Shown one piece after another: positions 1 through 15,440 of a stretch of DNA of 64,000 bases (the stretch's first letter is position 1; each line of letters begins with the position of its first letter). A model generated the notes under the pieces. It made no database searches. It was not told the origin of the DNA and saw only the letters and a program-made list of their open reading frames with translations. The DNA lies in contig CAXGOB010000018.1 of the NCBI GenBank assembly GCA_964011275.1, forward strand, positions 2,951 to 66,950, given 5' to 3'. The position numbers and the translations under genes were made by a program. Source of the stretch: an uncultured Saprospiraceae bacterium (GTDB lineage Bacteria > Bacteroidota > Bacteroidia > Chitinophagales > Saprospiraceae).

Positions 1-139
1 AATAATCTACTTTCTTTATTCGAGCATGGGCGCAACTTGAGTCATAAGCCAATGCATACAAAGTACCTGCTCTAACCGGGATATCATCAAGATAAATAGA
101 TGTCCCTTTTACATGGCTATTTGAATCGATGTTTTTCAT
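1..139 (-). CDS. xdhB: xanthine dehydrogenase family molybdopterin-binding large subunit, first 46 codons only (runs off the window)
   Basis: My own minus-strand translation from the ATG at 139-137 gives MKNIDSNSHVKGTSIYLDDIPVRAGTLYALAYDSSCAHARIKKVDY. This is a typical N-terminus of XdhB/aldehyde oxidase a/b-hammerhead domains. The start overlaps the TAA of the upstream small-subunit gene. Confidence 0.75.
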   Translation of the reverse strand, partial: MKNIDSNSHVKGTSIYLDDIPVRAGTLYALAYDSSCAHARIKKVDY

Positions 140-1548
140 TATTGGGCCACACTTTTGAGAGTGATCAATTCAAATTTCTCAGGAAAAAGTTCTAAGAAAT
201 GTGCCCAAAAAAGTTGCCTAAGTAAGAGCCTTTTATAAGACTCTGTACCTCTAGCATCACTTATAGGAGCAATCTCATCCTGCATAATATCGATAGCCGC
301 TAATATTGTTTTTTCGTTTAAAATCTTTCCAAGTAAAAATGCTCTGGTTTTTGCTAAATACTTTGGAATAGGGGCTACACCACCAGCAGAGATATGTATA
401 TCTGAAATTATCATTCCGCTGAGTATAATACTCATAGCACTGTTCACACTGGCTATATCAAGATAGGTTCTTTTACTAACCTTTTCAAAGTTGAAATGTG
501 TATTTTCCCTAGGCATATCAAATTGAATCTTAATTAAATGCTCATCAACAGCTAAGTCATAGGTTTTATATCCTCGATAGAAATCTTTGAGAAAAAGATC
601 TCGTTGATCTCCATTATTATTTTGGATAAGGATTGAGCTATTCAATGCTAAAAAAAATGCTGTCAAATCACCAATTGGCGAGGCATTGACAAGATTGCCT
701 CCTATGGTTCCACTATTTCTTATTGGGGTAGAAGCTACTAATTTCATATGATTAAATAGGTTTGGAAACATACCTATCATTTCTTCTGATTCCATCAGCT
801 CGCTGACAGATGTTATAGCTCCAATTGAACATTTACCTTCTGAAACTTTTATGCCTATTGAACCTTTTTTACCAAATAGACCTTGTATGCTTGATTCGTA
901 AACATCATCATGTTTTTGAACTAAAAGATCCGTTCCTCCTCCAATAGTCACTGCCCCAATACTTTGTGGAAGAGGTTTTATATGTTCAATTCTCTCTACA
1001 ATACGATTAAAATAATCAGGAACAATTTTATTTTTTGAGCACCAAGGAATTGGGTTAGAAATATCTTTTTCTTTTAAATGTGAATGTATATTGTTACAAG
1101 CACGTTCGATAGATTTATATCCTGTACATCTGCAAATATTCCCATCTACTGCTCCTACTACATCGTCATATGATGATATCTTCCTAGAAAGACATTCACC
1201 TGTGAGTGATACAACAAAACCAACAGTACAAAATCCACATTGAGATCCTGATTCATCTACTATTGCTTGTTGCACTGGAGTCAAGTCTGAGCCATTGATT
1301 CCCTCAATACTTACCACATGTTTGCCATGTACATTGATCAATGGTGTAATGCAAGAAGTCATGGACAGGTATTGCATTTGTCCATCTACTAATTCACCTA
1401 ATAATATGGTACATGCTCCACAATCACCTTCGCGACAACCGATTTTTGTACCTACCAGTCGTTTTTCATATCGGATGAAATCCAATAATGTCATACCTGC
1501 AGGTTGCAAAGTTTCAATAGTGGTGTCATTCAGAATAAAGCTGATCAT
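139..1548 (-). CDS. xdhA: xanthine dehydrogenase small subunit (2Fe-2S plus FAD-binding domains)
   Basis: 469 aa. Has 2Fe-2S ligand blocks CREGDCGACT, CGFCT and CRCTGY, followed by a CO-dehydrogenase-flavoprotein-type FAD domain (GGGTDLLV). Sits in an operon with xdhB-like and xdhC-like genes. Confidence 0.9.
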   Translation of the reverse strand: MISFILNDTTIETLQPAGMTLLDFIRYEKRLVGTKIGCREGDCGACTILLGELVDGQMQYLSMTSCITPLINVHGKHVVSIEGINGSDLTPVQQAIVDESGSQCGFCTVGFVVSLTGECLSRKISSYDDVVGAVDGNICRCTGYKSIERACNNIHSHLKEKDISNPIPWCSKNKIVPDYFNRIVERIEHIKPLPQSIGAVTIGGGTDLLVQKHDDVYESSIQGLFGKKGSIGIKVSEGKCSIGAITSVSELMESEEMIGMFPNLFNHMKLVASTPIRNSGTIGGNLVNASPIGDLTAFFLALNSSILIQNNNGDQRDLFLKDFYRGYKTYDLAVDEHLIKIQFDMPRENTHFNFEKVSKRTYLDIASVNSAMSIILSGMIISDIHISAGGVAPIPKYLAKTRAFLLGKILNEKTILAAIDIMQDEIAPISDARGTESYKRLLLRQLFWAHFLELFPEKFELITLKSVAQ

Positions 1549-1550
1549 AC

Positions 1551-2030
1551 TTAATATTTGATCTTGATTTCACTTTTAGCCCATTCCTCGAAAGCAATCA
1601 ATGCCTCCTCTCTTAAGATTTGTTTAGTAAAAAGTTTTCTCTCAGAAATTGGCTTTGATATTTCTTCATAGATGAATTGATCATCGAAATTGATATGGGC
1701 AGCATCTATTTTAGAATTGGCAAAGAATACACTTTTAGGGCGAGCCCAATAAATTGCTCCAAGGCACATCGGGCATGGTTCACAGCTAGTGTAAATTTCG
1801 CAGTCGTCAAGTTGGAAAGTTTTTAATTCCTTACATGCATTTCTTATAGCCATTACTTCAGCATGTGCTGTAGGGTCGTTAAGCGAAGTCACCTGATTGG
1901 TGCCTCGAGCAATTATCTTTTTATCTTTTACTACCACAGCACCAAAAGGTCCTCCTTGTCCAGAGGTCACATTTTTTATAGAGAGCTCAATTGCTGCTCT
2001 CATGAATTTGTTTTCTTTTTCAGAATCCAT
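1551..2030 (-). CDS. guaD: guanine deaminase (cytidine/deoxycytidylate deaminase fold)
   Basis: 159 aa. Has zinc motifs HAEVMAI and PCPMCLGA. The size and sequence resemble the small GuaD type. Lies between xdhC and xdhA. Confidence 0.8.
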   Translation of the reverse strand: MDSEKENKFMRAAIELSIKNVTSGQGGPFGAVVVKDKKIIARGTNQVTSLNDPTAHAEVMAIRNACKELKTFQLDDCEIYTSCEPCPMCLGAIYWARPKSVFFANSKIDAAHINFDDQFIYEEISKPISERKLFTKQILREEALIAFEEWAKSEIKIKY

Positions 2031-2047
2031 ATTAGGCTTAAATCTTG

Positions 2048-3013
2048 CTAATTAATAAGGAATTTACCATTTTTCACAGCAATTATTTGAGCTGCTACAC
2101 TTATTGCTATTTCCATAGGAGTTTGGCTGTTTATTTCGATTCCAATAGGAGTATGAATCTTGTCTAATTGTCCTTGCTCAAATCCATCAGTCAAAAGGGA
2201 AGTAAATAATGTCTCCATTTTAGATTTACTTCCCATCACACCAAAATATCTGTAATTTCTATTTAAAAGTTGTTTTATACAAGTCTCATCTGTCCTATAC
2301 CCAAAAGACATTAAGACAAGAAAGTCAGTGGAGTTGTCAGGAATCACTTCAGTTAGGTTTTGATAGTTTACAACATGCCTCTCATGAGCATAAGAGTTAT
2401 TCTCCATGGTGTTTAGGTTGTTGCGCTCATCATAAATTTTGACATGAAAGTCTAGTTGGTTCATGACCTGAGATAAGGCAAGTCCAACATGCCCACCACC
2501 AATAATATGGACCATAAGTTTATGATTTATGGACTCTTTGTATGTCCATTCCTTAGGACTACGCGATTCAAAATTGGATTTTGAAGTTGTAAATTCATCC
2601 TCTATCAAATTAAATCCATAATGATTTAGAATTAGGAACGGGTGGTCTTTTGATTTAGAGTTGGTATTAATTTTTTCAAGGAATGGCAAGGCAGAATCAT
2701 CAAAATGATAAAAGCCAATAGTCTGTTCTCCAGAACAAATCATTCCTGATTGTTCCTTTTCTATATTCTTTCTGTGTATTTGTTTCTTAATAAATGGTTG
2801 GAATGATCCTTTATCTAAAAGTGATTTGGCAAGTTCTATCAACTTGTGCTCCATTATTCCTCCTCCTATTGAACCCTCAAGTTTATGATCATCAGTAACA
2901 TACATCTTGAAACCCTGACGACCTGGACTACTGCCGTCACTATCCAACACACACATAAGAACAAGTTTCTTCTTTTGATTTAACTCCTCTAATATTTTGT
3001 TCCAGATATTCAA
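2048..3013 (-). CDS. xdhC: XdhC/CoxI family xanthine dehydrogenase accessory (Moco insertion) protein
   Basis: 321 aa. Has an N-terminal XdhC/CoxI-like region (SPGRQGFKM) and a C-terminal Rossmann part (HIIGGGHVGLAL). It is the first gene of the minus-strand xdh operon. Confidence 0.85.
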   Translation of the reverse strand: MNIWNKILEELNQKKKLVLMCVLDSDGSSPGRQGFKMYVTDDHKLEGSIGGGIMEHKLIELAKSLLDKGSFQPFIKKQIHRKNIEKEQSGMICSGEQTIGFYHFDDSALPFLEKINTNSKSKDHPFLILNHYGFNLIEDEFTTSKSNFESRSPKEWTYKESINHKLMVHIIGGGHVGLALSQVMNQLDFHVKIYDERNNLNTMENNSYAHERHVVNYQNLTEVIPDNSTDFLVLMSFGYRTDETCIKQLLNRNYRYFGVMGSKSKMETLFTSLLTDGFEQGQLDKIHTPIGIEINSQTPMEIAISVAAQIIAVKNGKFLIN

Positions 3014-3139: not shown

Positions 3140-4771
3140 TTGAAATTGGTTAAACCTTTGATTACTATATTCAAAATTTTTGCAACATTTTGCTTTATCA
3201 TTTTGGTAGCTGATGGTTATGCTCATTCTTCGATGTACCAAGGTGATACATCCACTATTGAAATAGCAGATACTATAGTCCAAAATTCAATAGTGAACAC
3301 ATCAGATATTGAAGAGAAGGTGTCCTATTTTGACAAGTTATTGGCGGATGAGTTTTTGCCCTTCTTTCTGTTACTGATATTCATATTCATTGTGCTTTAC
3401 TACATGGCTCATGTTTTTGTGGAGAGCTATAATGCTGTAAATAAGAAGAAGATATCAACCGGTGCAAATATTGAAAACAATGAAAACCAAGGATACTTTC
3501 AGGCTACTTTAAATGCGCTGTATTATATCATTCCTATTTCAATATTTTCTTACTTGATTTATATAGCCGTTAAGGGGACGATGATGCAAGGTTATACGAT
3601 GGAATGGTTAAATCTGATCATAAGATGGGCTCATGTGGTAGCTGGGATTATGTGGATTGGAGCTTCATTCTATTTTGTTTTTCTTGAAAATAATCTGAAC
3701 AGAACTAAAAATATCCGAGATGAATTAGCTGGTAATTTATGGGCAGTTCATGGAGGAGGGTTTTATTTTCTTGAAAAATATAGAGTAGCTCCAAATCAAA
3801 TTCCTAATGATTTACATTGGTTTAAATATGAAGCCTATTTCACATTTCTTACTGGTTTTTCATTGCTAGTGGTTGTATATTATATGAATGCGGACTCTTT
3901 CCTTATCGATCCTTCAGTAGCCGATATTTCTATTGGCATGGCTATAGGAATAAGTCTATTATGTTTGGTAGGAGGGTGGTGGATTTATGATATGATGTGT
4001 AAGTCTTCAATTGTAAATAAGTCATGGCTATTTATTTTCTTAGGAATCTTGCTTCTTTCAAGCCTAGCCTATTTTTTGACTCATGTTTTTAATAGTAGAG
4101 CAGCTTTCATTCACTTTGGAGCGGTCATCGGAACGATAATGGTCGGAAATGTCTTTTTCAATATTATCCCAGCTCAAAAAGAAATGGTTAAAGCGGCCAC
4201 TTTAGGACTTCCTCTTGATCCTTCCTTGGGGCAAAAAGCTGGGCAAAGATCTTTGCATAACAATTACTTTACCCTTCCTGTGATTTATGTTATGATTAGC
4301 AATCACTTTCCGAGCACATTTGGACATGAATATAATTGGGCGGTACTAATAGTAATCTCATTAGCTAGTGCCGGAATAAAGCATTATTGGAACCTTGTTG
4401 AACGAGGTCAAAAAAATACCAAAATATTAATCATCTCTGTGGTGTCATTATTCTCATTGGCATTAGTAATATCTCCAGCTTTTGAAGCTAAGATGGACTT
4501 GGCTGTGCCTGTAAGTTTTCTAGAAGTGAAAGAGGTAATTGACAATAGGTGTATACAATGCCACTCTGCAAGCCCGACTGATGATGTCTGGAAGGCAGCT
4601 CCAAATGGTGTGATGTACGATACTCCTGAGCAAGTCAAAAATATGAGTGACAAAATAATGGCAAGAGCTGTCAGAACGAAGACAATGCCTCAAGCCAATA
4701 AGACCAATATGACTGATGACGAAAGGAAAATTCTAAAAAGGTGGATTTTACAAGGAGCTAAAATAGACTGA
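3140..4771 (+). CDS. puuD: membrane urate hydroxylase PuuD-type (cytochrome c fused), start uncertain
   Basis: Multi-TM protein with the conserved core WLNLIIRWAHVVAGIMWIGASFYFVFLEN and a C-terminal heme-c motif CIQCH. It heads the allantoin arm of the cluster. The tracked start is a TTG. About 150 aa precede the conserved core, so the true start could be an internal Met. Confidence 0.75.
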   Translation: MKLVKPLITIFKIFATFCFIILVADGYAHSSMYQGDTSTIEIADTIVQNSIVNTSDIEEKVSYFDKLLADEFLPFFLLLIFIFIVLYYMAHVFVESYNAVNKKKISTGANIENNENQGYFQATLNALYYIIPISIFSYLIYIAVKGTMMQGYTMEWLNLIIRWAHVVAGIMWIGASFYFVFLENNLNRTKNIRDELAGNLWAVHGGGFYFLEKYRVAPNQIPNDLHWFKYEAYFTFLTGFSLLVVVYYMNADSFLIDPSVADISIGMAIGISLLCLVGGWWIYDMMCKSSIVNKSWLFIFLGILLLSSLAYFLTHVFNSRAAFIHFGAVIGTIMVGNVFFNIIPAQKEMVKAATLGLPLDPSLGQKAGQRSLHNNYFTLPVIYVMISNHFPSTFGHEYNWAVLIVISLASAGIKHYWNLVERGQKNTKILIISVVSLFSLALVISPAFEAKMDLAVPVSFLEVKEVIDNRCIQCHSASPTDDVWKAAPNGVMYDTPEQVKNMSDKIMARAVRTKTMPQANKTNMTDDERKILKRWILQGAKID

Positions 4772-4782
4772 GATCATTTTTT

Positions 4783-6123
4783 ATGAAAAGTGCACTATAT
4801 AGTAAAAGAGTAGTTCTAAAAGAAGAGATAAAAGAAGCTACAATCTTTATTGATGGTGATCGGATATCTGCGATCGAAAATGGCCTTATACATAGAAGTG
4901 GATATGAGATAGAAAATTGTGGCAATGATGTGATCATGCCCGGACTGATAGATAGTCATGTACATATTAATGAGCCAGGAAGAACAGATTGGGAAGGATT
5001 TGAGTCCGCTACTAAATCTGCGGCAGCAGGAGGAATTACGACTCTAATTGATATGCCATTGAATTCTAGTCCAGTCACAACTAGTGTAGCGGCATTTGAA
5101 GCAAAACTAGATTCAGCGAGATTTAAAATTCATACCAATTGCGGTTTTTGGGGTGGATTTGTCCCTGATAGTTTGGGAGAAGTAAAAGAGTTGTTGAAAA
5201 GTGGAGTCATGGGCATAAAAGTTTTCCTTTGTCATTCTGGTATTGATGATTTTCCAAATGTAACAGAGGAAGATTTACGTAGAGCACTGCCTATTCTAAA
5301 AGAAGCAGACCTGCCTTTACTTGTGCATTGCGAATTAGAAAGTGATCACACTGATCAAGTTTTTTTAAAAAAATCACCTTACTCTTATGATGCTTATCTA
5401 AAATCTAGACCAGCAAGTTGGGAAGATGAAGCAATATTTCTAATCATCAGATTATGTGAGGAGTATGATGTAAGATGTCATATCGTCCATTTGTCATCAG
5501 AAGATAGCTTAAAGCAAATCAGAGAGGCCAGAAAATCTGGCTTACCACTGACTGTAGAAACTTGCCCTCATTATTTGGTTTTTAATGCTGAAGACATTAA
5601 TGACGAGTCCACAGAATACAAATGTGCACCACCAATCAGAGGAAAGAAAAATAATAAAGCCTTATGGCAAGCTATAAGAGACGGGCTTATTGATTTCATT
5701 GTAACAGATCATTCTCCTGCGCCTCCTGAGTTAAAAGAAATTGAGTCAGGTAACTTCGATAAAGCGTGGGGAGGCATTGCTAGCTTACAGTTGAGCTTGC
5801 CCGCTGTGTGGACAAGAGCGCAAAAAGAAGGATTAGGAATCAAAAAGCTGTCAGAGTTGATGTGCAGTAATGTGGCTCAATTTTTAAGAATAGATAAAGA
5901 AAGAGGCCAAATTGAGAAAGGTTATTATGCAGATATTGTGGTTTGGTCCCCAGAAGAATTATTTGTTGTAAACGAACATGATTTGCATCATAAACACAAA
6001 GTCACTCCTTATCTTAATAGCGAATTGAAAGGTGTAGTTAGGAAAACATATGTGTCAGGGTATAAGGTTTTTGATAATGGTGATTTTGGTGAAAAACCAA
6101 GAGGGGAAATTATATTAAAATAA
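4783..6123 (+). CDS. allB: allantoinase
   Basis: 446 aa cyclic amidohydrolase. Has the DSHVHINEPGRTDWEGF metal-binding block, HCE and TDHSP motifs. The context is purine catabolism. Confidence 0.9.
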   Translation: MKSALYSKRVVLKEEIKEATIFIDGDRISAIENGLIHRSGYEIENCGNDVIMPGLIDSHVHINEPGRTDWEGFESATKSAAAGGITTLIDMPLNSSPVTTSVAAFEAKLDSARFKIHTNCGFWGGFVPDSLGEVKELLKSGVMGIKVFLCHSGIDDFPNVTEEDLRRALPILKEADLPLLVHCELESDHTDQVFLKKSPYSYDAYLKSRPASWEDEAIFLIIRLCEEYDVRCHIVHLSSEDSLKQIREARKSGLPLTVETCPHYLVFNAEDINDESTEYKCAPPIRGKKNNKALWQAIRDGLIDFIVTDHSPAPPELKEIESGNFDKAWGGIASLQLSLPAVWTRAQKEGLGIKKLSELMCSNVAQFLRIDKERGQIEKGYYADIVVWSPEELFVVNEHDLHHKHKVTPYLNSELKGVVRKTYVSGYKVFDNGDFGEKPRGEIILK

Positions 6124-6126
6124 TAG

Positions 6127-7101
6127 ATGAAAAATCCGGAATTTCTAAAATTTATCAATGTAGGTGCCGAAAAACTAGGTGCAAAATCTATGTCCTGTTC
6201 TGATGACTTCTTTGCTGAAAAAGAAAACCTTTTAAAAGAGGGTAGAGGTGTTTTTATCGCTGATAAATATACAGACAGAGGAAAATGGATGGATGGATGG
6301 GAGTCTAGAAGAAAACGAATCGAAGGACATGACTGGTGCATTGTAAAACTTGCAGAAACATCTATAATAAAGGGTGTAGATGTTGATACTAATCACTTTT
6401 TAGGTAATCACCCACCTTATTGTTCTATCGAAGCATGTAATTCCAGAAGTGGTGATTCTGAATCTTCAGAATGGTTTGAAATATTGCCTAAATCTCCACT
6501 AGATCCAGGATCCCAACACTTTTTTGAAATCCTTAATGATAGTCAATGGACACATGTGAAATTGCATATCTATCCTGATGGAGGAGTGGCCCGATTGAAA
6601 ATATATGGTGAAGTCAAAAAGAATTGGGAACAGGTGTCAAATAATGAGTTAATAGATCTCGCAGCGGCTATTAATGGAGGTAAGTCCATTAATTGTAATG
6701 ATATGTTTTTTAGTCATATGGATAACCTAATTATGCCCGGAAAGGGCAGAAACATGGGAGATGGATGGGAAACTAAAAGAAACCGTACTCCAGAAAATAG
6801 AGATTGGGTAATGATTAAATTAGCCCATAAAGGTTTGGTGAAGAAAATAGTTGTGGATACAAAACACTTTAAAGGAAATTATCCAGATACATGTTCGATT
6901 GATGGTTGCTTTGCTCCAAATACAGATCCACAAGAGCAAGATTGGTTCTCATTATTAGATAGAGTTAAACTTGGCCCTGATCAAGAACATATTTTTGAAC
7001 GGGAAATTTTAACCGATAAAATGCTGACTCATATTAGATTGAATATATTTCCAGATGGAGGAATTAGTCGACTTCGTGTTTTAGGAAACATCATAAGATA
7101 A
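6127..7101 (+). CDS. alc: allantoicase
   Basis: 324 aa with two internally repeated allantoicase modules (WMDGWESRRKR... and GDGWETKRNR...; HIYPDGGVARLKIYG and NIFPDGGISRLRVLG). Confidence 0.9.
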   Translation: MKNPEFLKFINVGAEKLGAKSMSCSDDFFAEKENLLKEGRGVFIADKYTDRGKWMDGWESRRKRIEGHDWCIVKLAETSIIKGVDVDTNHFLGNHPPYCSIEACNSRSGDSESSEWFEILPKSPLDPGSQHFFEILNDSQWTHVKLHIYPDGGVARLKIYGEVKKNWEQVSNNELIDLAAAINGGKSINCNDMFFSHMDNLIMPGKGRNMGDGWETKRNRTPENRDWVMIKLAHKGLVKKIVVDTKHFKGNYPDTCSIDGCFAPNTDPQEQDWFSLLDRVKLGPDQEHIFEREILTDKMLTHIRLNIFPDGGISRLRVLGNIIR

Positions 7102-7605
7102 ATGACACTTTCAGAATTAAATATTGCTCCTCTCAAAGAGGTAAAAGAAGCTCTTTTGAAGTGTTGTGGATCAACCTATTGGGCCAAAAATGTATTTGAT
7201 GCACGTCCTTTCGAATCTCGGAGTGATCTTATTAAAAAGTCAGATATGTCATGGAGTATTTGTTCCAATGTGGATGCACTCGAAGCATTCAGTCATCATC
7301 CCAAAATTGGAAGTGTTGCGAATTTGGAAAAGAAGTTTGCTTCCACTGCTCATTGGGCGAAAAATGAACAGCAAAGTGTAAAGGAAGCCACATTTGAAAC
7401 GATCAAAAAATTAGCAAAAGGTAATAAGGAATACGAAGATAAATTTGGTTATATTTTTATTGTTTTTGCTAGTGGGAAATCAGCAGAAGAGATGCTTGCT
7501 TTGTTAGAAATGAGATTAAAGAATGATCCGGAAGAGGAAATTCTGATAGCTATGCAGGAACAGAATAAAATTACTAAACTGAGATTAGAAAAACTTTTGG
7601 AATGA
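7102..7605 (+). CDS. uraD: 2-oxo-4-hydroxy-4-carboxy-5-ureidoimidazoline (OHCU) decarboxylase
   Basis: 167 aa. Has the AFSHHPKIG motif and the size and context of UraD. The start abuts the alc stop. Confidence 0.85.
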   Translation: MTLSELNIAPLKEVKEALLKCCGSTYWAKNVFDARPFESRSDLIKKSDMSWSICSNVDALEAFSHHPKIGSVANLEKKFASTAHWAKNEQQSVKEATFETIKKLAKGNKEYEDKFGYIFIVFASGKSAEEMLALLEMRLKNDPEEEILIAMQEQNKITKLRLEKLLE

Positions 7606-7943
7606 GTCAGATTACAACACATATTCTTGACACAATGACTGGAAAACCTGCTGAAGGGATTACAATAATGTTGGAAGAATTGGATGAAAATAATAATTGG
7701 TCTGAATTGGCTTCTGGTATAACTAATACTGATGGAAGAATTAGTGATTTACTCAAGGATAATCAAGTGCTAGAAGAAGGGGTACATAGAATGTTGTTTC
7801 AGACTAAGGCTTATTTTGAAAACCAAAACTTGAAAAGTTTTTATCCAGAAATTCCAATCATTTTCGAGATAACCGATGAAAGCCATTATCATATACCGTT
7901 GCTTTTGAGCCCATATGGATATAGCACATATAGAGGAAGTTAG
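7602..7943 (+). CDS. hiuH: 5-hydroxyisourate hydrolase (transthyretin-like)
   Basis: 113 aa. Has the N-terminal ITTHILDT motif and the C-terminal YHIPLLLSPYGYSTYRGS signature of HIU hydrolases. There is a 4-nt overlap with uraD. Confidence 0.9.
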   Translation: MSQITTHILDTMTGKPAEGITIMLEELDENNNWSELASGITNTDGRISDLLKDNQVLEEGVHRMLFQTKAYFENQNLKSFYPEIPIIFEITDESHYHIPLLLSPYGYSTYRGS

Positions 7944-8112: not shown

Positions 8113-9552
8113 ATGAATACTTCTATACCAACAGAAGACAAACAGAGAATACTCAATGATTTGTCAACAGCAAATAAAGTTTTTCAACAGAAATATCCAG
8201 GAGATAGTTCAGAACGACAACCTGTACATACCGTATATGGGGGGGCAGATCTTTTTAGGCATGATTCGGCTCAAAAAATGGCTGATGTAGCTCTAAATAC
8301 AATAAGAGATAATGCAGCAAATTTTGTTGAATTTGCTCGGGCTATAAAATTAACCGGCTATGCTGACCTTCCAACTGATGACGTTGTCATTGAGGCTTTA
8401 AAAAATGAGCTTGATGGAATGTCTGATGGGGAGCGAAAGGAACATTTCGCATGGTTGTCTTATACTACTTTTAATAAAGTCATTTCCAAACTTGAGAAGG
8501 AGGCTGTTGAGGATTTTAGAATAGATTTTGAAGATGGATTCGGCAATCGATCTTGGGAAGAAGAAGATGAGACCGCAATCCGAGCTGCCACTGAATGTGC
8601 CATAGGAATGGAAAAGAATTCATTACCTCCTTTTATAGGTATCCGCATCAAGCCATTTACAGAAGATTTGAAAGAGAGGGGAATAAGAACATTAGATTTA
8701 TTTTTGTCCACCTTGGCTCACAAAACTCATGGCAAACTGCCAAACAACTTTGTAGTTATGCTTCCTAAGGTTACAATTCCAGAACAGATAGAATCATTGA
8801 TTGCGATTTTTGAAATCATTGAATTTCAAACGGATATTAAGTCAGGAGCATTAAAAATGGAAATGATGGTGGAAACTACTCAGTCAGTTATCGATTCTGA
8901 TGGAAGTAATCCTTTGAGATCTTTTGTGTTGGCGAGTAAAGGGAGAATGATTTCTACAGCTTTTGGTACTTATGACTATACTGCATCTAATAATATTACT
9001 GCCAAGTATCAGGACATGGGCCATTCTGTATGTGATTTTGCGCATCATTTTATGAAAGTAGCATTAGGGGGAACAGGGATATGGCTGTCAGATGGTGCAA
9101 CTAATGTGATGCCAATTGGGCCGCATAGGGGAAAAGACTTGACTGACGATCAAAAAGCAGAAAATAGATCTGTTGTGCATAATAGCTGGAAAAAAGCATT
9201 TGACCATACAAGGTATTCTCTTTGGAAAGGATTATATCAAGGATGGGATTTACATCCTGCCCAGTTTCCTATGAGATATGCAGCAATCTATTCCTTCTTT
9301 TTAGAAAGTTATGAAGAGGCCGCTAAGCGATTAAAAGCATTTGTGGATAAAGCTGCTCGAGCAACTCTAACAGATGATGTTTTTGATGATGCTGCTACTG
9401 GTCAGGGATTACTTAATTTTTTTCTTAGAGGGCTAAACTCTGGTGTCATAACTGAAGATGAAGCAAGAGTTACTGGTCTTACTATGGACGAACTACGTAG
9501 TCGTTCATTTTTAGCAATAATGGAAGGAAGGAGAAACAATAAGAAATTATAG
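8113..9552 (+). CDS. conserved hypothetical enzyme in the purine operon, possibly an HpcH/CitE/malate-synthase-like TIM-barrel fold
   Basis: 479 aa soluble protein with no signal peptide. The acidic block FRIDFEDGFG resembles the xDxEDxx metal/substrate block of CitE/HpcH-type lyases. It is co-oriented between hiuH and the purine permease. The family assignment was not verified. Confidence 0.35.
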   Translation: MNTSIPTEDKQRILNDLSTANKVFQQKYPGDSSERQPVHTVYGGADLFRHDSAQKMADVALNTIRDNAANFVEFARAIKLTGYADLPTDDVVIEALKNELDGMSDGERKEHFAWLSYTTFNKVISKLEKEAVEDFRIDFEDGFGNRSWEEEDETAIRAATECAIGMEKNSLPPFIGIRIKPFTEDLKERGIRTLDLFLSTLAHKTHGKLPNNFVVMLPKVTIPEQIESLIAIFEIIEFQTDIKSGALKMEMMVETTQSVIDSDGSNPLRSFVLASKGRMISTAFGTYDYTASNNITAKYQDMGHSVCDFAHHFMKVALGGTGIWLSDGATNVMPIGPHRGKDLTDDQKAENRSVVHNSWKKAFDHTRYSLWKGLYQGWDLHPAQFPMRYAAIYSFFLESYEEAAKRLKAFVDKAARATLTDDVFDDAATGQGLLNFFLRGLNSGVITEDEARVTGLTMDELRSRSFLAIMEGRRNNKKL

Positions 9553-9555
9553 AAC

Positions 9556-10959
9556 ATGTTTGAAAAAATATTTAAGCTCAATCAAAATGGCACTACGGTT
9601 AAGACCGAAATACTGGCTGGCCTCACCACATTTTTAACGATGTCTTATATCCTATTCGTTAATCCTTCTATACTTTCTCAAACAGGAATGGAATACGAAT
9701 CCGTCTTCATTGCCACATGTTTAGCTGCTGCTATAGGGACTTTCCTTATTGGAATCCTATCAAATTATCCAATGGCTCAGGCTCCAGGAATGGGCTTGAA
9801 TGCATTTTTCACTTTTACTGTAGTTTTTAGTTTGGGATATAGCTGGCAGCAAGCCTTGGCCATAGTGTTTTTATCAGGTGTATTATTCTTGTTATTGACA
9901 ATAACAGGACTTCGGGCAACCATTATTAAAGCCATTCCCAAAAATCTAAAGCTGGCAATTGCTCCTGGAATCGGTTTGTTTATTGCGTTGATAGGATTGA
10001 ATAATGCAGGGCTGATTGAAGTAAATCAAGGGCCAATCATAAGCCTGATTCTGGATAGTGATTTATTGAGTAAAGATCAATTAATTGACCAAGTGAATTC
10101 GGTTCCATCACAAATAATCCAATTGGGTAAATTATCAGATCCATCAGTATTGTTGACAGTAATTGGATTGGTTTTACTTGTGGCATTGATGGTGCTTAAA
10201 ATAGACTCTGCCATGTTATGGGCCATTATTGTAACCACCATTATTGGTATTCCTATGGGTGTGACTGTACTTCCTGATTCATATGATTTAAGTAGAATTT
10301 CATTGTCTCCAACGGCATTTAAGATGGATTTTGTAGGACTTTTTCAAATTGGAAAAGGCTTATCCTTCGTCACGGCCGTTCTGCCAGTCATTATTGTTGT
10401 TATAAGTTTTACACTCGTGGATTTGCTAGATACTTTGGGGACTTTATTAGGAACAGCTGGAAAGGGAGACATGCTAGATGAAGATGGTAATCTTCCAAGA
10501 ATGAATAAGGCTCTTTTCGCTGATGCTACTGCTACCACATTAGGAGCTATGCTTGGCACATCCTCAGTCACCACGTACATTGAAAGTAGTTCTGGTATAA
10601 TTGCTGGAGGTAGGACTGGGTTGACTTCCACCACAACCGCTGTTTTGTTTTTATTTGGAATATTATTGGCTCCAATTGCAGGCATAGTTCCGGTCGCTGC
10701 CACTTCTCCTGTTTTGATTATAGTAGGTGTGCTAATGATGGATGGCATCAAAAAAATAGATCTGTCATCTATCGATTCAGCAATTCCGGCTGTATTGCTG
10801 ATTATCATAATGCCATTCACTTATAGCATAGCAAATGGAATTGCTTTTGGATTAATGTTTTATGTCCTTATTGAAGTTGTTAAAGGCAATTTCAAGAATA
10901 TTCATCCGATACTTTATCTTTTGGTTGGACTGTTTCTCTTGAAATATGTGGCTCTGTAG
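9556..10959 (+). CDS. NCS2/AzgA-family purine (guanine/hypoxanthine/adenine) permease
   Basis: 467 aa polytopic protein. The N-terminus FKLNQNGTTVKTEILAGLTTFLTMSYILFVNPSIL is characteristic of PbuG/AzgA-type permeases. Confidence 0.85.
   Translation: MFEKIFKLNQNGTTVKTEILAGLTTFLTMSYILFVNPSILSQTGMEYESVFIATCLAAAIGTFLIGILSNYPMAQAPGMGLNAFFTFTVVFSLGYSWQQALAIVFLSGVLFLLLTITGLRATIIKAIPKNLKLAIAPGIGLFIALIGLNNAGLIEVNQGPIISLILDSDLLSKDQLIDQVNSVPSQIIQLGKLSDPSVLLTVIGLVLLVALMVLKIDSAMLWAIIVTTIIGIPMGVTVLPDSYDLSRISLSPTAFKMDFVGLFQIGKGLSFVTAVLPVIIVVISFTLVDLLDTLGTLLGTAGKGDMLDEDGNLPRMNKALFADATATTLGAMLGTSSVTTYIESSSGIIAGGRTGLTSTTTAVLFLFGILLAPIAGIVPVAATSPVLIIVGVLMMDGIKKIDLSSIDSAIPAVLLIIIMPFTYSIANGIAFGLMFYVLIEVVKGNFKNIHPILYLLVGLFLLKYVAL

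Positions 10960-13102: not shown

Positions 13103-15436
<2,334 letters not shown>

Positions 15437-15440
<4 letters not shown>

Follow-up and report, generated by a model that had tools for sequence, protein, structure and literature searches.

Which enzyme acts after allantoicase in bacteria that have no recognisable ureidoglycolate lyase? The question arises in a 64,000-nucleotide stretch of DNA (C18:2951-66950, hereafter the window) from the genome of an uncultured Saprospiraceae bacterium, where a purine-degradation operon contains a single uncharacterised enzyme. Its gene lies at 8113..9552 on the plus strand and encodes a 479-aa protein of the family DUF6986 (PF22484, E = 7.8e-169). The allantoicase of this operon yields ureidoglycolate and urea, and the original prediction was that the cluster holds no enzyme for either ureidoglycolate or glyoxylate. 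This proved to hold for the genome as a whole, which is 98.5% complete: there was no match to AllA (PF04115) or AllD (PF02615), no hydantase/UAH-type M20 amidase over cut-off, no malate synthase (PF01274) or isocitrate lyase, no glyoxylate carboligase over cut-off, and neither urease alpha subunit nor urea carboxylase. As the known enzymes are absent, the ureidoglycolate and glyoxylate steps are both without an assigned gene in this organism, and the nitrogen of urea seems to be unusable to it despite a pathway that releases urea, so that its gain from the pathway may lie in energy, in glyoxylate or in no more than ammonia from the deaminase.

Based on genomic context and occurrence, we propose that the DUF6986 protein is probably the ureidoglycolate lyase of the purine operon and a non-homologous replacement of AllA. 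We favour the ureidoglycolate step over a glyoxylate-condensing one because DUF6986 excludes AllA, but not malate synthase, from the genomes in which it occurs.

Linkage of DUF6986 to purine genes across phyla

Of 301 sampled Bacteroidota genomes, 21 carry DUF6986 over cut-off. Every genome with a two-repeat allantoicase (15/15) carries it on the same contig within ~2.5 kb. Two further genomes, G155 and G195, have the gene in clusters of the order PuuD / AllB-AAH-UGlyAH-UraD-UraH-DUF6986 (AAH, allantoate amidohydrolase; UGlyAH, (S)-ureidoglycine aminohydrolase), and G002 has a fragment of it on a 1.4-kb contig without context. The remaining three complete genes are divergent (34-40% identity) and lie outside purine contexts.

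A further 80 DUF6986 loci were taken from a species-genome collection. They represent at least eight named phyla, among them Bacteroidota, Acidobacteriota, Melainabacteria/Cyanobacteriota, Fidelibacterota, Balneolota, Dormiibacterota, SAR324 and metagenome-assembled genomes (MAGs) labelled as Pseudomonadota. UraD, UraH, Alc, AllB or PuuD was encoded within 10 kb in more than 60 of the 80. Clustering of the surrounding open reading frames (ORFs) identified UraD (54 loci), AllB (49), PuuD (42), UraH (42) and Alc (40) as the most recurrent of these neighbours, together with xanthine dehydrogenase (Xdh) subunits (30, 27 and 20), allantoate amidohydrolase (8) and a bicupin (6), while no AllA, malate synthase or carboligase was among the recurrent neighbours of the 80 loci. 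Co-occurrence with alc and allB, which the original prediction had named as a pattern to look for, is therefore strongly evident in many phyla. Some clusters lack allantoicase and encode allantoate amidohydrolase (NF006775) and (S)-ureidoglycine aminohydrolase (TIGR03214), both over cut-off, and these variants still finish with uraD-uraH-DUF6986. Both routes converge on (S)-ureidoglycolate, and the one constant past that compound is DUF6986.

In a maximum-likelihood tree, the window protein and the purine-linked proteins fall into one clade of 78 rows with 99% support in the Shimodaira-Hasegawa-like approximate likelihood ratio test (SH-aLRT). Purine-linked rows dominate this clade, and adjacency to uraH or uraD survives rearrangements of the operon. 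The distant members at 34-40% identity are found near TauD and methyltransferase genes or without purine genes, and they do not inform the clade of the window protein. Taken at face value, their unrelated contexts and identical active-site residues would suit a lyase or aldolase that acts on a different 2-hydroxy or 2-oxo acid (for instance one derived from oxalurate, tartronate or pyruvate) or on an unrelated CoA ester, with the purine linkage reflecting co-regulation. For the window protein we consider this very improbable, as its clade is overwhelmingly purine-linked across phyla and the uraH/uraD adjacency has been kept.

Occurrence of AllA and malate synthase

None of the 15 Bacteroidota genomes with allantoicase and DUF6986 encodes AllA (0/15). 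This absence is weak evidence by itself, because AllA is rare in the phylum (4 of the 301 genomes). A second sample, independent of the first, comprised 151 genomes from the phylum of the L106 genome. Stand-alone allantoicase was present in 14 of them, and 13 of these 14 have an adjoining DUF6986 gene and no AllA. DUF6986 is missing from the fourteenth, G391, whose AllA (E = 1.8e-43), encoded next to PuuD in divergent orientation, is the single full-length one in the sample. Its cluster has the order AllA / PuuD-AllB-Alc-UraD-UraH, and that of its relative G354 is PuuD-AllB-Alc-UraD-UraH-DUF6986. This exchange of AllA for DUF6986 is the pattern expected of non-orthologous displacement. When the two samples are pooled, 28/29 genomes with stand-alone allantoicase have DUF6986 within ~2.5 kb and no AllA. 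An anti-correlation with allA had been envisaged at the outset and was indeed observed, with DUF6986 and a purine-linked AllA occurring together in 0/28 allantoicase genomes.

In G391, the place 3' of uraH that DUF6986 takes in the relatives of this genome is filled by two ORFs (295 and 199 aa; L131:5866-7353, minus strand) that match nothing in Pfam.

Among 50 genomes with DUF6986 clusters from all phyla, 43 had no PF04115 match of any kind. The matches in the other seven are to partial cupins away from purine genes, one of them next to a GCS2 gene, and we rejected them as the AllA of the pathway on the grounds that they are partial and distant from the purine genes. Four of the seven share one arrangement, which was identified by Pfam in the Acidobacteriota locus L125 as nuoD-x-nuoH. 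The AllA-like cupin of this locus (L125:1387-1845) is 152 aa long, matches PF04115 positions 57-148 and lies between nuoD and nuoH; judging by ORF arrangement, L126, L128 and L129 have the same nuo-type placement.

Canonical malate synthase, by contrast, was found in 7/15 of the Bacteroidota genomes with alc and DUF6986 (compared with ~12% of the sample), in 4/13 of those from the second phylum (against a background of ~21%), and in 13/50 of the genomes with DUF6986 clusters. Malate synthase co-occurs freely with DUF6986, and therefore DUF6986 is not an alternative to it; the anti-correlation with malate synthase that had also been envisaged was not seen. The original prediction had left the choice between a ureidoglycolate-cleaving and a glyoxylate-condensing enzyme, and of these two candidates the occurrence data favour the first.

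The second candidate, which we judge to be unlikely, would be an enzyme analogous to malate synthase or malyl-CoA lyase but dedicated to this pathway, joining glyoxylate to acetyl-CoA in a role like that of yeast DAL7 or Streptomyces aceB1, with ureidoglycolate cleaved spontaneously or by another enzyme. It would agree with the lack of canonical malate synthase in 37/50 cluster genomes and with the lack of malate synthase, isocitrate lyase and carboligase in the genome of the window, where, with urea unusable, the cell would gain mainly from retaining glyoxylate. DUF6986 is nonetheless not depleted in genomes with malate synthase, nearly every allantoicase genome of two phyla would be left without a lyase if the enzyme were a condensing one, and the presence of AllA in the G391 cluster would be a coincidence.

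A single active site might also couple the two reactions, converting ureidoglycolate and acetyl-CoA to malate, urea and CoA and so replacing both AllA and malate synthase. Metal-bound glyoxylate would then be condensed directly, which would channel a toxic intermediate. The same catalytic residues could plausibly serve both half-reactions, and coupling would explain why the genome of the window, like many of the cluster genomes, has neither AllA nor malate synthase. Likewise, the AllA-encoding G391 has a malate synthase, and 9/13 of the genomes with DUF6986 and alc in its phylum have neither enzyme. This comparison depends on a single contrasting genome, however, and malate synthase is kept in 4/13 and 7/15 of the DUF6986 genomes. 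In addition, the ureidoglycolate lyase (UGL) of zebrafish has no malate synthase activity, and the malate synthase of a sea anemone has no UGL activity (PMC10120013). We therefore regard a coupled enzyme as the least probable of the readings considered here.

Family membership and predicted fold

Judging by its profile match, the gene product is a full-length member of DUF6986: it scores 562.2 bits against a gathering cut-off of 27, and its residues 18-467 align with positions 2-406 of the 408-position profile. The family is large, with more than 8000 proteins in a word-indexed search (the closest at 60-84% identity) and 2185 cluster representatives with E <= 0.001 in an exhaustive search. The database names of these homologues are inconsistent and include "phosphoenolpyruvate kinase", "citrate lyase beta subunit", "aldolase/citrate lyase family" and "DUF6986 family". 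Domain fusions were limited to four singletons with sensor, kinase, GGDEF/EAL and GntR-aminotransferase modules, which may be gene-calling read-through and are uninformative on function.

We modelled the protein with AlphaFold2, using an alignment of 47 diverse DUF6986 members (A1) as input. The model has a predicted local distance difference test score (pLDDT) of 94 and a predicted template modelling score (pTM) of 0.91, and consists of an eight-stranded barrel with an extra N-terminal helix, a C-terminal helical domain and, separating strands 1 and 2, a helical insertion of ~90 residues. A globular barrel of this kind is consistent with the earlier description of the product as soluble. Foldseek matched the model to structures of the CitE / malyl-CoA lyase / malate synthase superfamily with E-values of 5e-9 to 1e-7. 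The best structural alignment by VIA was with CLYBL (5vxc; Z 26.8, root-mean-square deviation 2.5 Å over 285 aligned residues), followed by the malyl-CoA lyases 5ugr (Z 26.5) and 4l7z (Z 25.5), the Haloferax malate synthase 3oyx (Z 24.6), CitE (1sgj, Z 24.1), malate synthase A (3cux, Z 21.4) and malate synthase G (1n8i, Z 20.6), while pyruvate kinase and other barrels did not exceed Z 18. A single-sequence search of the PDB returned chance matches only (serpins, E = 0.025), and a profile search was needed to detect the relationship. The family profile matched malyl-CoA lyases with E = 3e-5 over the segment from beta4 to beta6, and hhalign aligned the DUF6986 profile with a malate synthase alignment headed by Escherichia coli AceB at 93% probability. 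In Pfam, MS_TIM-barrel (18.1 bits, cut-off 26.4) and HpcH_HpaI (17 bits, cut-off 25) gave matches below threshold.

From the model and the profile comparisons, we assign the protein to the CitE / malyl-CoA lyase / malate synthase superfamily. The original prediction had guessed this superfamily from an acidic FRIDFEDGFG block, and had proposed profile and fold comparison as the way to examine it; the matches to CitE, malyl-CoA lyase and malate synthase far exceed those to other TIM barrels. Narrower assignments were rejected. The protein scores below the thresholds of the malate synthase, CitE and HpcH families themselves, and for malate synthase proper (PF01274, EC 2.3.3.9) the G-R-W-D-Y box also reads G-T-Y-D-Y. 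It is not an AllA either, as it has no PF04115 match and its fold is a TIM barrel rather than a cupin.

This fold bears on the possibility of a glyoxylate-condensing enzyme as well. The nearest structures are CoA-ester lyases (CLYBL and malyl-CoA lyase, Z 25-27), with malate synthases at Z 21-25, which would suit such an activity, while the sub-threshold malate synthase score and the loss of the residue corresponding to AceB R276 argue against it.

Active-site residues and proposed mechanism

The guess at the superfamily is confirmed by the conservation of its active-site residues. The FRIDFEDGFG block (residues 135-144; 8515..8544 on the plus strand, as are all residues below) lies on barrel strand 2 and is kept across the whole DUF6986 family, with D138 invariant and E140 and D141 at least 90% conserved. 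By eye, from motif and order, we matched D138-D141 with D117-D120 of AceB (DFED) and with the D-x-E-D motif of CitE. Two predicted Mg2+ ligands follow from hhalign and from hidden Markov model (HMM) alignments to 4l9y, 4l7z and 5ugr. E254 on strand 5 (8872..8874) aligns with AceB E250 and with the second Glu of the malyl-CoA lyase E-x-x-x-E-[ST] strand, and D288 on strand 6 (8974..8976) aligns with AceB D278 and the corresponding Asp of malyl-CoA lyase; both are at least 90% conserved. In the same comparison, T286 stands at the position of AceB R276, and W378 aligns with AceB W365.

Two more residues lie in regions that the profile alignment does not reach. R178 at the end of strand 3 (8644..8646), which is invariant in A1 and family-wide, would correspond to AceB R166 and to R338 of malate synthase G by motif order (IRIK and VRPR, respectively), and would be the counterpart of the residue that polarises the leaving-group carbonyl. 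D426 (9388..9390) lies in the F-D-D-A-A-T loop of the C-terminal helical domain, where D425 and D426 are at least 90% conserved across the family. Motif and order place it opposite AceB D447 (M-E-D-A-A-T), the catalytic Asp of malate synthase, of which it is the putative equivalent. The pLDDT of this loop is lower, at 69-76, as expected of a lid. The predicted catalytic set is invariant or nearly so throughout the family, including distant members that are not purine-linked, and no clade-specific active-site substitution of obvious catalytic meaning that would mark a change of function was seen in the family alignment.

These residues suggest a mechanism for cleavage. (S)-Ureidoglycolate, HOOC-CH(OH)-NH-CO-NH2, can be viewed as an aza-analogue of malyl-CoA, HOOC-CH(OH)-CH2-CO-SCoA, an isostere of the malyl thioester in which NH replaces CH2 and NH2 replaces S-CoA. 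In the proposed reaction, ureidoglycolate would be coordinated through its carboxylate and hydroxyl to an Mg2+ on E254 and D288, and its ureido carbonyl would be polarised by R178. Cleavage of the C2-N bond would then yield glyoxylate, and D426 on the C-terminal lid, as the Asp that gives or takes a proton in this superfamily, would protonate the departing urea. Each of the four residues would thereby play the role that it has in the C-C cleavage of malyl-CoA. The retained catalytic set is compatible with a ureidoglycolate lyase because the machinery of the superfamily would fit C-N cleavage unchanged.

Evidence weighing against a ureidoglycolate lyase

Several observations weigh against the proposed activity. 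As the full catalytic set for C-C chemistry appears to be retained, the sequence cannot separate a ureidoglycolate lyase from an enzyme of glyoxylate/acyl-CoA chemistry, and the conserved Mg ligands, Arg and C-terminal Asp would serve the condensing enzyme described above equally. The swap of AllA for DUF6986 was seen in one genome, G391, and canonical malate synthase is a further difference, present in G391 and missing from four of its relatives with DUF6986. Because of this second difference, which a condensing enzyme would also account for, the G391 contrast alone cannot name the enzyme that was replaced, and it is the wider counts that decide. Those counts in turn overstate independence as a result of kinship among the genomes within each phylum. 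Ureidoglycolate also decays spontaneously, so that a dedicated lyase is not strictly required. Furthermore, the genome of the window has no recognised consumer of glyoxylate or urea, which leaves the fate of both products unexplained and gives mild support to a condensing or coupled activity.

The last of these points concerns a sister lineage formed by L082 and L095 (100% support). In L082, a Gammaproteobacteria MAG, a DUF6986 gene 53% identical to that of the window lies in a CoA-ester operon (L082:1457-11043) with an SDR (short-chain dehydrogenase/reductase) fusion, a 556-aa acyl-CoA dehydrogenase, a hydratase like RipB and mesaconyl-CoA hydratase, a B12 enzyme like methylmalonyl-CoA mutase, and MeaB; the operon contains no purine genes. 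A beta-hydroxyacyl-CoA lyase would be expected at this position, specifically a beta-methylmalyl- or citramalyl-CoA lyase, which suggests that some DUF6986 members are acyl-CoA lyases and adds to the case for a condensing activity.

Comparison with characterized enzymes

Our literature search returned no paper on the bacterial DUF6986 family, which is not proof that none exists. The family itself is uncharacterised, but UGL activity on a scaffold of the malate synthase / CitE superfamily has a eukaryotic precedent. The MSL protein of Danio rerio (DrMSL) is an experimentally proven (S)-specific, urea-releasing UGL with a malate synthase fold and no malate synthase activity (Dembech et al. 2023, PMC10120013). 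The UGL group to which it belongs is reported to consist of eukaryotic sequences only and is marked by the substitutions R276I and W365M (PMC10120013). As in DUF6986, the glyoxylate-site residues are kept in DrMSL and the AceB R276 position is lost (Ile in DrMSL, Thr286 here), and both proteins came to light through co-occurrence with genes of the allantoicase pathway. DrMSL lies inside the malate synthase family, whereas DUF6986 is the separate family PF22484, below the malate synthase threshold in Pfam, with ~17% identity over the aligned core and with a predicted structure closer to CLYBL and malyl-CoA lyase. DrMSL is also metal-independent, whereas the predicted metal ligands of DUF6986 are strictly conserved, and the equivalent of AceB W365 is Met in DrMSL and a retained Trp (W378) in DUF6986. 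We consequently rejected membership in the eukaryotic UGL group on the basis of Pfam family and of these R276 and W365 equivalents, and DUF6986 would be a recruitment separate from the eukaryotic UGL.

With AllA (PF04115; known from E. coli and Pseudomonas), DUF6986 would share the reaction, EC 4.3.2.3. It also shares the niche beside allantoicase, in which the two are alternatives within an otherwise identical operon. The two have unrelated folds, however, AllA being a cupin of ~160 aa and the 479-aa DUF6986 protein a TIM barrel that carries a helical lid, and they show no sequence similarity. The best structural matches, malyl-CoA / beta-methylmalyl-CoA lyase and CLYBL, likewise have an Asp in a helical domain at the C-terminus, and the Glu and Asp that bind Mg in them align with DUF6986. 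The DUF6986 protein is ~140-180 residues longer and is found in a ureide context rather than in CoA-ester pathways.

Enzymes of this superfamily also occur in allantoin clusters elsewhere. DAL7 of Saccharomyces cerevisiae and aceB1 of Streptomyces are malate synthases A dedicated to such clusters, and like DUF6986 they stand at the glyoxylate end of the pathway. They differ in being true PF01274 malate synthases that coexist with a separate ureidoglycolate lyase, while clusters with DUF6986 have no other lyase and true malate synthases accompany DUF6986 elsewhere in the genome.

A related architecture was found in 16 genomes of the second phylum sample (around G350), in which a fusion protein of ~1550 aa is encoded beside PuuD and XdhB (for example at L141:3099-7823 and L142:2365-6966, both on the plus strand). 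It comprises, in order, a divergent malate-synthase-like module (MS_TIM-barrel and MS_C), an OHCU decarboxylase, a module of beta-lactamase fold and a two-repeat allantoicase. In the malate-synthase-like module, the DxED motif is retained, as are the equivalents of AceB R166, E250, D278, W365 and D447, and Trp stands at R276. Neither AllA nor DUF6986 was found in the 16 genomes. The fusion shows independently that bacteria couple modules of this superfamily directly to allantoicase.

Gene model and surrounding genes

The ORF at 8113-9552 is intact, as had been noted, with an ATG start, 479 codons and no internal stops. Only four further open codons lie upstream of the ATG (an open frame of 483 aa), and close homologues (474-480 aa) align with the protein end to end, beginning at residue 1, so the start is secure. 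The 169-nt gap 5' of the gene matches no Rfam family, has no significant fold (z -1.5) and lacks a plus-strand terminator, and promoter-like sites in it are at chance level in a scan that excludes promoters of the Bacteroidota type.

The neighbours that had been named for this operon were all borne out by Pfam or NCBIfam matches. The plus arm begins with a PuuD-type membrane urate oxidase (3140..4771; PF06181 Urate_ox_N, E = 2.5e-120), followed by the allantoinase AllB (4783..6123; TIGR03178, 520 bits, cut-off 358), the allantoicase Alc (6127..7101; TIGR02961, 421.6 bits, cut-off 278), the decarboxylase for OHCU (2-oxo-4-hydroxy-4-carboxy-5-ureidoimidazoline), UraD (7102..7605; NF010372 / TIGR03180, over cut-off) and the 5-hydroxyisourate (HIU) hydrolase UraH (7602..7943; TIGR02962, 147 bits, cut-off 87). 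The last four were scored against the cut-offs of their NCBIfam equivalogs, and all exceed them. DUF6986 sits between uraH and a xanthine/uracil-family permease (Xan_ur_permease, 9556..10959, plus strand; PF00860, E = 3.7e-39), whose start lies 3 nt past the DUF6986 stop. According to Pfam, the divergent minus arm (139..3013) encodes XdhC (2048-3013), a CDA-type deaminase (1551-2030) and the 2Fe-2S/FAD subunit of Xdh (139-1548).

The longest ORF of PuuD begins at TTG; Urate_ox_N spans only residues 152-444 of the protein, and Pfam gave no cytochrome c domain for the ~100 C-terminal residues. Further along the window, at 13118-15440 on the plus strand, a serine palmitoyltransferase of the Bacteroidota type (NF047600, 689.5 bits, cut-off 640) is overlapped at its 3' end by a 384-aa ORF with a C-terminal GNAT domain. 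The two are probably a sphingolipid-synthesis pair unrelated to DUF6986.

Implications

Aerobic degradation of purines ends with the cleavage of ureidoglycolate, and in Bacteroidota, Acidobacteriota, Melainabacteria and several other phyla this step has no assigned gene. If DUF6986 is the ureidoglycolate lyase, it would fill this hole in the pathway in thousands of genomes, and names such as "phosphoenolpyruvate kinase", "citrate lyase beta subunit" and "aldolase" would be corrected. Metabolic models that describe how bacteria of soil, freshwater and marine habitats cycle purines and urea would improve accordingly. It would also mean that the malate synthase / CitE scaffold has been recruited to ureidoglycolate cleavage at least twice, once in the eukaryotic UGL and once in bacterial DUF6986, with the four-module fusion protein possibly representing a third recruitment.

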